NCBI GenBank assembly: GCA_046290465.1
Contig: JBKAGP010000001.1
Location: forward strand, 3,040,001-3,104,000
Origin: Planctomycetota bacterium
Lineage (GTDB): Bacteria > Planctomycetota > UBA1135 > UBA2386
DNA length: 64,000 bases
Direction: 5' to 3'
The translations under genes and the position numbers were made by a program. The notes beneath the pieces are model-generated. The model was not told where the DNA came from. It saw only the letters and a program-made list of their open reading frames with translations, and searched no databases. Below, piece after piece: positions 241 through 6,923 of the stretch (within the stretch, counting starts at the first letter, position 1; each line of letters begins with the position of its first letter).

Positions 241-285
241 TTCCCAAGCTGAGTGTCGTCGGTTCGATCCCGATCATCCGCTCCA
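241..285 (+). mobile_element. 3' half of tRNA-Gly(CCC); probable att site of a tRNA-integrated element located to the left
   Basis: TTCCCAA anticodon loop, GCTGA 3' stem, T-arm GTCGG-TTCGATC-CCGAT, acceptor strand CATCCGC, discriminator T, CCA. Upstream 236-240 (CCGAG) cannot pair with GCTGA and no D-arm or 5' acceptor strand is present. Confidence 0.8.
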
Positions 286-380
286 TTCTCGCATGGCGAA
301 TACAGTCCAGCATCTTGCGCCCCCGGTCGCCCCAACCTGCGCAACGCCGCAAGATTCGAGGAGAGCCCGACACAGCCTCA

Positions 381-4431: not shown

Positions 4432-4477
4432 GGCCGATCACCGCGCCACACCGCCCCCCGGTCGCACACCTCGGGGG

Positions 4478-5785
4478 GTGCCCACACTCCGACCAACGAT
4501 CCGCTTCCACCGGGGCCTGGCCCTCGTCGACGGCTGGCCCGCGCGGCTGGCGACACCGTCCGGCGCGCACCGCGACGGCGCGCGACTCCGCGCCCCCGCA
4601 CGGCTTCGCCATCGCCTGCGCCACGCGCTCGCCCTCGCGGGTGTCCCCTATCGCGACGAGACCAACGCCGCGTCGCCGGCTGCGGCCGCGGCCGGCGGCT
4701 CGGCGCACGCGACCCCACCGGGCCTCGCCCAGGCGCTGCGAACGTCCCGGCACCGCGGCATCCTGATCGGCCAGTCCGAGACGACGTGCGCCGCCGTCGC
4801 CCGGCTGCTGACGCAGCTCACGTCGGCGCCTCCGCTGACCGTCACGCCGGACACCGCGACCGCGCACCGCTGGCAGGCGCGGCCGGATCTGCCCGACCAG
4901 GCCGAACTCGCAAGCGCGACGATCCTCACCATCCAGCGCGCCGCGCGCGACATGCACTGGCTCGGCGGCCGCCACGACACGGTGCTGGTCGACGGCCCGG
5001 AACGCATGCCGGCGACGCTGCTCGACCCGGCGCTCGACCAGTGCGCGGCGCTGGCGCGGATCGGCTTCGCAGGTTCGATGCCGGCGCGCGACGCGGAGCG
5101 CTGGTGCACGCGCATCGGACCGGTGCTCGCGGTCGCCGCTCCGCCGAGCATGCCGCACGGCGCCTCCCTGCTGGTGCCGCTGCCGCCCGAGGCGGAGCGG
5201 CACTACCACGAGGCGTGGAGCACGTTCCTCGGCGCGTTCGACCGCTTCGTCGCGGCGCGCGGCGACGCCGGCTTCGGCACGTTCCTGGCGCAGGCGCGCA
5301 AGGACCCGCTGCAGCGGCCGGCGGTGCACGCGTGGCACGAGGCGATCCGGTGCGCGGCGTGGCACGAGCACAAGGCGCTCGTCGTCGACGACCTGCTGCA
5401 CCGCCACGCCGACCGCCGCGTGCTGCTGTTCACCCCCGATCGCAACAGCGCCTACGAGCTGTCGCGACGCCACCTGATCCCGGCGCTGACCTCCGAGCTG
5501 CCGCTGCGAGAACGCGCCGCACTGCTCGACGCGTATGCCGACGGCACGGTGCGCGCGCTCGCCGGGCCCAAGCTGCTCGACAGCGGCGTCGCCGAGCGCA
5601 GCGCCGATGTCGGCATCCTGGTCGGCGGCGGCTTCGGGCCGGCACAGCGGGCCAGTCGCTGCCGGCGGGTGCGCGCCGACGGGATCGTGTTCGAACTGCT
5701 CTCCCAGGACACGCTGGAGGTCGGGCGTGCGCATCGATGGCATCACGCGGCTGCCGGCACGGCTGCTGTCGTTCACCAGCGCTGA
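4478..5785 (+). CDS. XPB/Rad25-like SF2 helicase homolog with degenerate ATPase motifs
   Basis: Collinear with bacterial XPB-like helicases (RVLLFT, LIPALT..PLRERAALL, LLDSGV, VFELLSQDT.E). Motif I reads GQSETT, II DGPER, III AGS, VI QRASRCRR. Lies directly upstream of DUF790. Confidence 0.75.
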   Translation: MPTLRPTIRFHRGLALVDGWPARLATPSGAHRDGARLRAPARLRHRLRHALALAGVPYRDETNAASPAAAAAGGSAHATPPGLAQALRTSRHRGILIGQSETTCAAVARLLTQLTSAPPLTVTPDTATAHRWQARPDLPDQAELASATILTIQRAARDMHWLGGRHDTVLVDGPERMPATLLDPALDQCAALARIGFAGSMPARDAERWCTRIGPVLAVAAPPSMPHGASLLVPLPPEAERHYHEAWSTFLGAFDRFVAARGDAGFGTFLAQARKDPLQRPAVHAWHEAIRCAAWHEHKALVVDDLLHRHADRRVLLFTPDRNSAYELSRRHLIPALTSELPLRERAALLDAYADGTVRALAGPKLLDSGVAERSADVGILVGGGFGPAQRASRCRRVRADGIVFELLSQDTLEVGRAHRWHHAAAGTAAVVHQR

Positions 5786-6923
5786 CGGCGAACTGGTGCC
5801 GACGTGGTTCGGCGACCGCGATCGGCCGTGGCTGCGCGACCTGCTCCACGACGCCGAGGCGCTGGCGGGGCAGCCGTTCGAAGTGTGGCGTCGACGATGG
5901 GCGCGCGGCGATCCCGACCCGCGCGCAGGCCGCACCCGGCAGCGCATCGCCGTGCACGTGCTCGCCGCGTGGCTCAAGCGCCGCTCGCGCACGCCGCCGC
6001 GGTCGGAGCTGCGACGCACGCTGTTCGAGCTGGGCGCCAGCGGCGTGCCACGCGAGGCCGCGCTCGCCGAGACCGCGAAGCGCCACGGCACGACGGTCGC
6101 GGCGCTGCAGCGGGATCTCTACCGCGACCTGCCCGACCAGCGCCCGGTCGCCTGGCCGTCGACGCCGCCCGACGCCGGCGCGTTCGCCGCCGCGATCAAC
6201 CTGGCGCTCGTGCGCGGCATGCTGCACGGCAGCGACCACGTCGCGATCACCGTGCGCGGCGGCTCGCGCGCGCTGCTGCGCACCGCGTGGCTGCTCGGCA
6301 TGAACGTGCAGGTCGACGGCCGTCGTGACGATCGCAGCCGGATCGTCTGGCCCAGCCCGGCGCCCAGCCCGACGACCAGCGCGACGACCAGCGCGGCAAC
6401 CAGCCCGTCGGCCAGCGCGGCGCGGCGCGGCCCGCTGTCGCTGGTCGCGATGCTGCCGTGGTGCCATCGCTACCGCCTGCAGGCGCGGTGCACGATCGGC
6501 GGCGCGCGCGGCCGGTTGGTCGTGAGCAGCGGCGACCCGATCCAGCCCGGCCCCGAGCCGCGGCGCTTCGACAGCAACCTCGAACGTCGCTTCGACCAGG
6601 CGTTTCGTCGCGAGTATCCGGAGTGGCGCGTGGTGCGAGAACCGTGCGCCGTGCCCACCGCGCACGGCCTGGCGTTTCCGGACTTCTCGCTGCAGGCGCC
6701 AGGGCACGAGCCGTGGCTGTGCGAGATCGCCGGCCTGCGCGATCCGCTGGCGCGCGCGGCCAAGCTGGCGCTGCTGCCGGCGTGCCCGCGGCTGGTGCTG
6801 TGCCTGCCGCGCGCGGCGATGGACGACCGGCTGCGTGCGCACCCGCGGGTCGTGCCGTTCGGGCGCAGCGTCGATGCGCGCAAGGTCGCGGAGGTGGTGC
6901 GGCGCGGCTCGCGCGAGGCGTGA
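5727..6923 (+). CDS. Bax1/DUF790 family PD-(D/E)XK endonuclease
   Basis: GTG 5727 with GGAGG at 5716-5720; LPARLL N-terminus, LYRDL, NLALVRGML, FDSNLERRF, WRVVREP...FPDF...EIAG. Confidence 0.85.
   Translation: MRIDGITRLPARLLSFTSADGELVPTWFGDRDRPWLRDLLHDAEALAGQPFEVWRRRWARGDPDPRAGRTRQRIAVHVLAAWLKRRSRTPPRSELRRTLFELGASGVPREAALAETAKRHGTTVAALQRDLYRDLPDQRPVAWPSTPPDAGAFAAAINLALVRGMLHGSDHVAITVRGGSRALLRTAWLLGMNVQVDGRRDDRSRIVWPSPAPSPTTSATTSAATSPSASAARRGPLSLVAMLPWCHRYRLQARCTIGGARGRLVVSSGDPIQPGPEPRRFDSNLERRFDQAFRREYPEWRVVREPCAVPTAHGLAFPDFSLQAPGHEPWLCEIAGLRDPLARAAKLALLPACPRLVLCLPRAAMDDRLRAHPRVVPFGRSVDARKVAEVVRRGSREA
6352..6423 (+). repeat. In-frame 12-bp tandem repeat x6 (CCAGC[C/G]CGnCnn) inside the Bax1 gene
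   Basis: ccagcccggcgc/ccagcccgacga/ccagcgcgacga/ccagcgcggcaa/ccagcccgtcgg/ccagcgcggcgc. Confidence 0.8.

Follow-up and report, generated by a model that had tools for sequence, protein, structure and literature searches.

Two overlapping genes in a 64,000-nucleotide stretch of a Planctomycetota genome (the window, as the whole analysed stretch is called here; contig JBKAGP010000001.1 of assembly GCA_046290465.1) encode a relative of the helicase XPB that has lost its ATPase residues, referred to below as pseudo-XPB, and a nuclease of the Bax1 (DUF790) family. The ATPase loss is shared by a clade of coupled, selected genes whose products keep the thumb wedge and the HD2 face of XPB and the catalytic triad of Bax1, and in relatives the pair shares a promoter-like motif with dprA, comM, comEC, radC and recA. 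We favour, with about as much belief as doubt, the reading that pseudo-XPB is an ATP-independent clamp that would seat Bax1 on junctions that other machines have opened, most probably recombination intermediates arising in natural transformation; the ATP-independent scaffold role in this reading is one that we infer from sequence. The following features of the window, all on the forward strand (+), carry the argument.

4443..4472, +: place of the clade's promoter-like motif, degenerate in the window (GCGCCACAC-N-CACACCTC) and failing, with scores of -2.8 to -5.8.
4478..5785, +: pseudo-XPB, 435 amino acids, an archaeal/bacterial Bax1-type XPB with the order DRD-HD1-thumb (ThM)-HD2 and its ATPase residues lost.
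4700..4792, +: positions at which the Q motif (residues 75-80) and Walker A (98-105, now GQSETTCA) have been lost, from alignment.
4991..5077, +: what is left of Walker B (D172-G-P-E175) and of motif III (A198-G-S), from alignment.
5183..5371, +: thumb domain, with F266 and W286 aligned to S. tokodaii F278 (wedge) and W298.
5372..5737, +: HD2, with motifs IV and IVa kept, the predicted Bax1 interface (Y326, L333, T338, E340, E345) and the motif VI remnant S393-R394-C-R-R397.
5716..5721, +: Shine-Dalgarno-like GGAGGT within the pseudo-XPB frame, 5 nt 5' of the Bax1 GTG, from the sequence and orthologue starts.
5727..6923, +: Bax1/DUF790 nuclease, 398 amino acids, lacking the C-terminal domain of its archaeal counterparts.
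6582..6764, +: nuclease triad Glu (6582), Asp (6681) and Glu (6723) with helix Lys (6762); clade-specific GLR replaces GFWT.

The first-pass annotation of this DNA had reported a full-length 435-amino-acid reading frame overlapped by a DUF790 gene, and both genes are indeed present, sharing an overlap of 59 nt. Bax1 probably starts at the GTG at 5727, behind GGAGGT, and three orthologues start at the same residue. An assembly artefact was rejected because the entire stretch lies on a single contig from another public run, which differs in 59 letters and has in-frame gaps only. The two genes overlap or abut in 32 of the 33 loci where this could be measured. At one locus (G036, L171:10580-12692) two genes sit between them, part of the pseudo-XPB C-terminus is repeated about 5 kb upstream and a 2OG-Fe(II) oxygenase gene follows 3' of Bax1; at another (G004, L170:8885-12058) there is no stop between the Bax1 frame and a 3-hydroxyacyl-CoA dehydrogenase/enoyl-CoA hydratase gene, through either a lost stop or an assembly error.

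By fold, pseudo-XPB is an XPB, in agreement with the SF2 assignment made earlier. It matches A. fulgidus XPB 2fwr in a phmmer search (E 3.3e-21), profile comparison aligned its residues 7-427 to 6p66, and its AlphaFold2 model (predicted local distance difference test, pLDDT, 87) retrieved archaeal XPB in all top 10 Foldseek rows, with a template-modelling (TM) score of 0.71 to 6p4f; Foldseek and the profile match recover the order DRD-HD1-ThM-HD2.

To place the lost and kept residues, we aligned 59 non-redundant clade proteins with 46 canonical ones, after the removal of 7 near-duplicate rows; the 46 canonical relatives are invariant at the ATP sites. The Q motif LRxYQ reads AHATP in the window protein, and its Gln occurs in 0/56 clade proteins vs 46/46 canonical ones. 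Walker A, LPTGSGKT, has become G98-QSETTCA with C104 in place of Lys, a residue that is likewise found in 0/56 vs 46/46, while the loop glycines persist in 1/56 and 2/56 (46/46 each in canonical proteins). For Walker B, DExH is replaced by D172-G-P-E175; across the clade the catalytic Glu is found once in 57 proteins and the His never (0/57), and the Asp is kept in 47/57. Motif III TAT is A198-G-S, with Thr/Ser retained at its two positions in 7/57 and 8/57, and motif VI, QRxGRxxR, aligns to S393-R-C-R-R397-V-R-A400, having lost its Gln (0/59), Gly (1/59) and last Arg (5/59) and kept two arginines, R394 (58/59) and R397 (59/59). The motif loss described at first for a single protein is therefore common to its orthologues, and the statement that every ATP motif is replaced is correct for the key residues of the Q, Walker A, Walker B, III and VI motifs and slightly too sweeping in view of the Walker B Asp and the two arginines. 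Motif VI itself had been read as QRASR, three residues out of register.

The surviving residues invite the view that pseudo-XPB binds a nucleotide or phosphate ligand without hydrolysing it and acts as a switch, which we hold to be very improbable. It is favoured by the Walker B Asp, by R394 and R397, and by an Arg that occupies the Walker A Lys site in 46/56 clade proteins; yet the Q motif and P-loop glycines are gone, the Walker A loop holds an acidic residue in 41/56, position 175 (the Walker B His site) is acidic, E or D, throughout the clade, and the Lys site is Cys or His in the window's own subclade. The acidic residue at 175 may pair with R394 and R397.

In phylogenies, the motorless proteins form one branch nested within bacterial Bax1-type XPB (FastTree support 1.0; SH-aLRT 100 and stem 0.79 in an IQ-TREE tree built on 71 of the rows). 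Within the window's Planctomycetota family, 32 of 91 genomes carry a Bax1-type XPB, which is motorless in 29 (one of them assigned by score alone) and canonical in 3, with no genome holding both. Named records are mostly Planctomycetota metagenome-assembled genomes, and at the DUF790 loci examined outside the family the adjacent XPB is canonical or there is none. Several genomes of the phylum have DUF790 genes with no XPB within 1.5 kb (L105-L111, L117, L121). In another family of the phylum (f21, L135-L146) DUF790 occurs in 23/23 sampled genomes; at its 12 fetched loci the FDS/PDF/EIxG patterns are mostly unmatched and the adjacent XPB, where present, is canonical, possibly a mirror case of dead nuclease and live motor. 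Seven more XPB homologues with a broken Walker A (P0090, P0114, P0115, P0121, P0149, P0151 and P0153), one of them from Ca. Tectomicrobia, are scattered over the tree as single clusters, which suggests that motor loss has been repeated.

Pseudo-XPB is not a decaying gene. Codon models fitted to 31 full-length genes gave ratios of non-synonymous to synonymous rates (omega) per domain (HD1, ThM, HD2) of 0.15-0.17 (GY) and 0.19-0.26 (MG), and 0.14-0.29 in subclades, values that are blurred by high GC and saturation; neutrality (omega=1) was rejected for the clade domains (2dL 468-722). The orthologues are thus under purifying selection, where the first-pass annotation had kept neutral decay as the outcome that would overturn its proposal. 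To the reading of the pseudo-XPB gene as a decaying pseudogene we give next to no credence: its omega does exceed that of canonical relatives and the window's copy has lost the promoter motif, yet reading frames are intact across 36-67% identity, omega lies far below 1, and the strain differences listed for this gene comprise 12 synonymous vs 5 non-synonymous codons, with gaps in-frame only. For the clade the pseudogene reading is largely refuted. In the Bax1 gene the corresponding figures are 6 synonymous vs 9 non-synonymous codons, 6 of the 9 lying within a Ser/Thr/Ala linker; both counts cover the 40 of 73 rows that were listed.

Within the clade, constraint has shifted from the ATP lobe to the thumb and HD2, with mean identities of 0.37 (HD1), 0.56 (ThM) and 0.60 (HD2) as compared to 0.54, 0.28 and 0.51 among canonical relatives. 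Solved structures show XPB binding Bax1 and the fork through thumb and HD2, according to the accessible sections of PMC7293015 and PMC7672443, the latter of which describe S. tokodaii F278 and W298 as wedging into and gripping the fork. Their counterparts here are kept almost without exception, F266 in 59/59 clade proteins and W286 in 58/59. The RED motif is absent from the window protein and varies among clade members as well as among the 46 canonical bacterial proteins.

Bax1 retains its own fold and catalytic residues. PF05626 matches it above cut-off (E 3.3e-25, profile positions 2-386 of 387), and all eight Foldseek matches of its model at E<=0.001 are Bax1 structures, with the NTD-CRD-NUS fold. 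As the first-pass annotation held, the nuclease motifs are kept: after removal of 3 near-duplicate rows, the E/D/E triad is complete in 34/34 paired Bax1 proteins, and its residues occur in 87/88, 88/88 and 88/88 database homologues. These acids are the equivalents of the AfBax1 nuclease residues E275/D305/E318 (accessible part of PMC7293015), and they are joined by a helix Lys/Arg in 34/34, as expected for DUF790 from the portion of PMC1913061 at hand. At the N-terminal acids (Af D133/E135), in a register taken from the bacterial alignment only, the Asp is present in 35/35, and the second residue is Glu in 8/35 vs 13/14 canonical proteins. A Ser/Thr/Ala repeat linker in the Cas2-like loop (window 6357-6425, +) measures 42 residues against 19-32 over the same span in relatives and varies in length among strains (-12, -24 nt).

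Structure prediction of the pair returned a complex score of 0.71, where the best control reached 0.00; it places HD2 against the NTD, as the solved complexes do, with at least 89% of contacts agreeing between runs and partner pLDDT of at least 79. The mark applied to this score is reached by 116/157 solved pairs and 2/215 mismatched pairs, and the pass may stem from likeness to the solved XPB-Bax1 structures; the two proteins are predicted to pair as a heterodimer in which HD2 meets the N-terminal domain of Bax1. Such an interface could also serve a protein that has ceased to recognise DNA and survives only as an aid to Bax1 folding or as a safety catch, holding Bax1 soluble or silent until release. 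We consider this explanation unlikely, even though many invariant HD2 residues fall in the predicted interface, the motif Ia Thr is commonly replaced by Asp (see below) and archaeal XPB blocks one Bax1 activity in the accessible text of PMC7293015. A mere Bax1 holder leaves unexplained why DRD and HD1 are whole and under selection (omega 0.15-0.29) although, in the same text, the C-terminal half alone binds AfBax1 tighter, and why F266 is invariant and W286 nearly so. For the clamp that we favour, AfXPB-Bax1 offers a precedent of a motor-free steering role: given a preformed bubble, the complex cut its second (far) junction in a buffer with no ATP listed, and needed both D305 and XPB binding to do so (as far as the accessible part of PMC7293015 goes).

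The likely setting of the pair is indicated by the DNA upstream of it. Clade pairs are preceded, 34-37 nt 5' of the start codon, by the motif TG(C/T)(A/C)ACCG-N16/17-CAC, a spacing that we take to fit a leaderless alternative-sigma promoter. With a matrix derived from pseudo-XPB upstream regions alone, scores of at least 9 were found in relatives for dprA (17/23) and comM (18/27), and for none of 23 rpoB or 20 other (Helicase_C_3) XPB genes. Applied to 21,957 candidate starts of the window's genome, the same matrix gave 7 scores of at least 13 vs 0 in the shifted control, among them comEC, comM, dprA and radC (listed twice), and recA and a DUF669 gene joined the motif set on a rescan. Conversely, a matrix from dprA/comM sites scored at least 12 (the level of 0.1% of random windows) at 24 of 28 clade loci, which include one duplicate pair and one 95% pair; because those sites had first been located with the XPB matrix, only the direction from XPB to dprA/comM is free of circularity. 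Both scored canonical pair copies of the window's family also reach 12 or more with the dprA/comM matrix, so the motif link predates motor loss. Across genomes, the -35 variant of xpb covaries with that of dprA/comM (6.15 vs 5.69 of 7, p 0.003, n=17, where kin are not independent). On canonical pairs of other families the motif matrix found 0/11 at a score of at least 8, which is uninformative as dprA/comM there mostly fail too. An IS91-like Y2 transposase fragment (G000 C1 5623463, +; L206) also carries a competence-type motif at matching distance.

A motif before recA and the DUF669 gene, together with the excision-repair role proposed for archaeal XPB-Bax1, would also suit a general repair nuclease for stalled forks or lesion bubbles, whose promoter answers damage or recombination and not competence. 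This we regard as quite improbable: the best-scoring targets are comEC, comM, dprA and radC, no uvr genes appear among the listed motif matches though uvrB and uvrC are present, and archaeal xpb/bax1 deletions caused no or marginal damage sensitivity in the accessible part of PMC4471258, as likewise little or none in that of PMC7690668.

The first-pass annotation had raised the matter of a second, canonical pair, and there is none of Bax1 type in the genome, which holds one DUF790 gene only. Its other XPB (C1 ~696.7 kb) belongs to the Helicase_C_3 type; its motifs are intact and it is coupled to a 622-amino-acid partner of its own, and this type occurs also in genomes without Bax1. No conserved third gene accompanies the pair, a candidate of this kind being rejected as neighbours recur within lineages only. 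The XPB and Bax1 trees agree better with each other (Mantel 0.68) than with RpoB (0.44, 0.09; the aberrant RpoB row G029 was dropped and 6/30 genomes gave no RpoB), so the two genes travel together within the family, and 9 of 12 supported XPB clades conflict with RpoB.

Such movement, the patchy distribution (29/91), varying neighbours and the few loci that adjoin AbiEi, type IV restriction, DndE or Uma2 genes could mark a mobile module for defence or DNA disposal, one that breaks down foreign or non-homologous DNA, be it phage forks or DNA taken up in competence. We think this rather improbable too, since PADLOC 2.0 returned 0 families for either protein at E<=1e-5, the pair was found in no viral contigs and none of the plasmids searched, and most neighbours are unrelated to defence. 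Near the window's pair, the 3' half of tRNA-Gly(CCC) occurs twice downstream of the intact gene (window 241-288, +; genome C1 2933119-2933193 and 3010590-3010637), the repeats being likely the right ends of two tandem integrated islands of ~77 and ~30 kb; the pair sits 4 kb beyond the last island so bounded. A SWIM-SNF2 helicase gene (window 381-3011/3185, -) lies just outside the attachment repeat, has generic, below-cut-off matches to ZorD/DpdE/DrmD profiles and is not conserved beside the pair in relatives.

Compared to known systems, the pair resembles XPB-Bax1 and the inactive module of XPF, yet lacks the ATPase residues of an XPB helicase. With archaeal XPB-Bax1 (A. fulgidus, S. tokodaii; PDB 6P66, 6P4F, 6P4O, 6P4W) it shares both folds, domain order, gene coupling, thumb wedge, predicted HD2-NTD interface and E/D/E triad; it differs in having no ATPase residues and no RED motif (which canonical bacterial relatives do not conserve either), in a Bax1 with no C-terminal domain, a remodelled Cas2-like loop and GLR for GFWT, and in the clade's competence-type promoter motif. 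The helicase-like module of XPF-ERCC1 is an SF2 shell devoid of residues for ATP binding; it attaches to junction DNA and governs a structure-specific nuclease (accessible sections of PMC7048804). XPF is however one chain fused to an ERCC4 nuclease, whereas here a separate XPB-derived chain accompanies a PD-(D/E)XK nuclease, and the likeness is one of analogy and not of system homology. CoiA (with RadA) and YraN, the known partner nuclease of ComM, are likewise PD-(D/E)XK nucleases acting on transformation intermediates, CoiA being junction-specific, in the available text of PMC13663708; they belong to other families and their helicase partners are active motors, and YraN and ComM coexist with the pair here. 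Utp25, a pseudohelicase with a helicase fold and dispensable motifs (PMC9539457, in part), is eukaryotic, DEAD-box-like, engaged in ribosome assembly and has no nuclease partner. Our search of the open-access literature found no description of a motorless XPB or of a link between XPB-Bax1 and transformation.

The clamp that we favour would work as follows. Pseudo-XPB would grip an existing single/double-strand junction with thumb and HD2 and so set the Bax1 cut site; the thumb would wedge into the end of a RecA D-loop or a non-homologous flap, and the Bax1 nuclease domain would nick one arm of the junction. The strand opening once given by the ancestral XPB motor would come from RecA, which opens, and ComM, which extends. 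The earlier proposal of a scaffold is borne out in its intact, selected reading frame, shared motif loss and XPB fold; the two motif VI arginines, the remodelling of Bax1 and the competence link had escaped it.

Several observations weigh against this explanation. About two-thirds of the family, in the assemblies searched, do without the pair, and YraN is present in 85/91 family genomes, so the pair fills no gap there and would be an accessory activity; as a replacement for YraN it was rejected on the same count. YraN (UPF0102) shares one open frame with a sugar-transferase (CoA_binding_3 + Bac_transf) at L312:1-1968 (G000 C1 ~462-464 kb, -), and YraN-type open frames of ~650 amino acids recur in many family genomes, possibly as a conserved fusion. 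The clade's omega exceeds that of canonical pairs (0.05-0.08), and comparing the window with its closest relative gives an uncorrected pN/pS of 0.66/1.08/0.46. The window's copy (-2.8) and its closest sequenced relative (-9.9) fail the motif, as does one further clade locus, with another weak; the window's own copy may be expressed otherwise or weakly. The recA site also fits a broader recombination or damage regulon. Finally, DNA contacts have changed: in HD1 the motif Ia Thr is Asp in 53/56 and the Ib Ser is kept in 6/56, and in paired Bax1 the Cas2-like loop GPxxLFRRTxxYG is shortened and replaced in 34/35 and GFWTxxY is GLRxxA in 33/34, by which DNA binding by the pair may be reduced. G017, the deepest-branching member with DNA in hand, retains GYWT and the long loop, which suggests, from one genome only, that motor loss preceded the remodelling of Bax1.

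A bolder version, which we advance tentatively and with more doubt than belief, is that XPB-Bax1 forms here a third nuclease system of transformation, under control of a competence sigma factor and not a part of excision repair, which shed its motor once RecA and ComM opened the strands, as a counterpart of the dead module of XPF, with Bax1 re-tuned later. A natural, selected motorless XPB separates the clamp role from the motor role, and both can be tested with two small proteins. The pair would be a prokaryotic parallel to the origin of XPF's inactive helicase module. The shared motif points to natural transformation as the setting of the pair, and provides a first candidate for a competence promoter in this Planctomycetota family.

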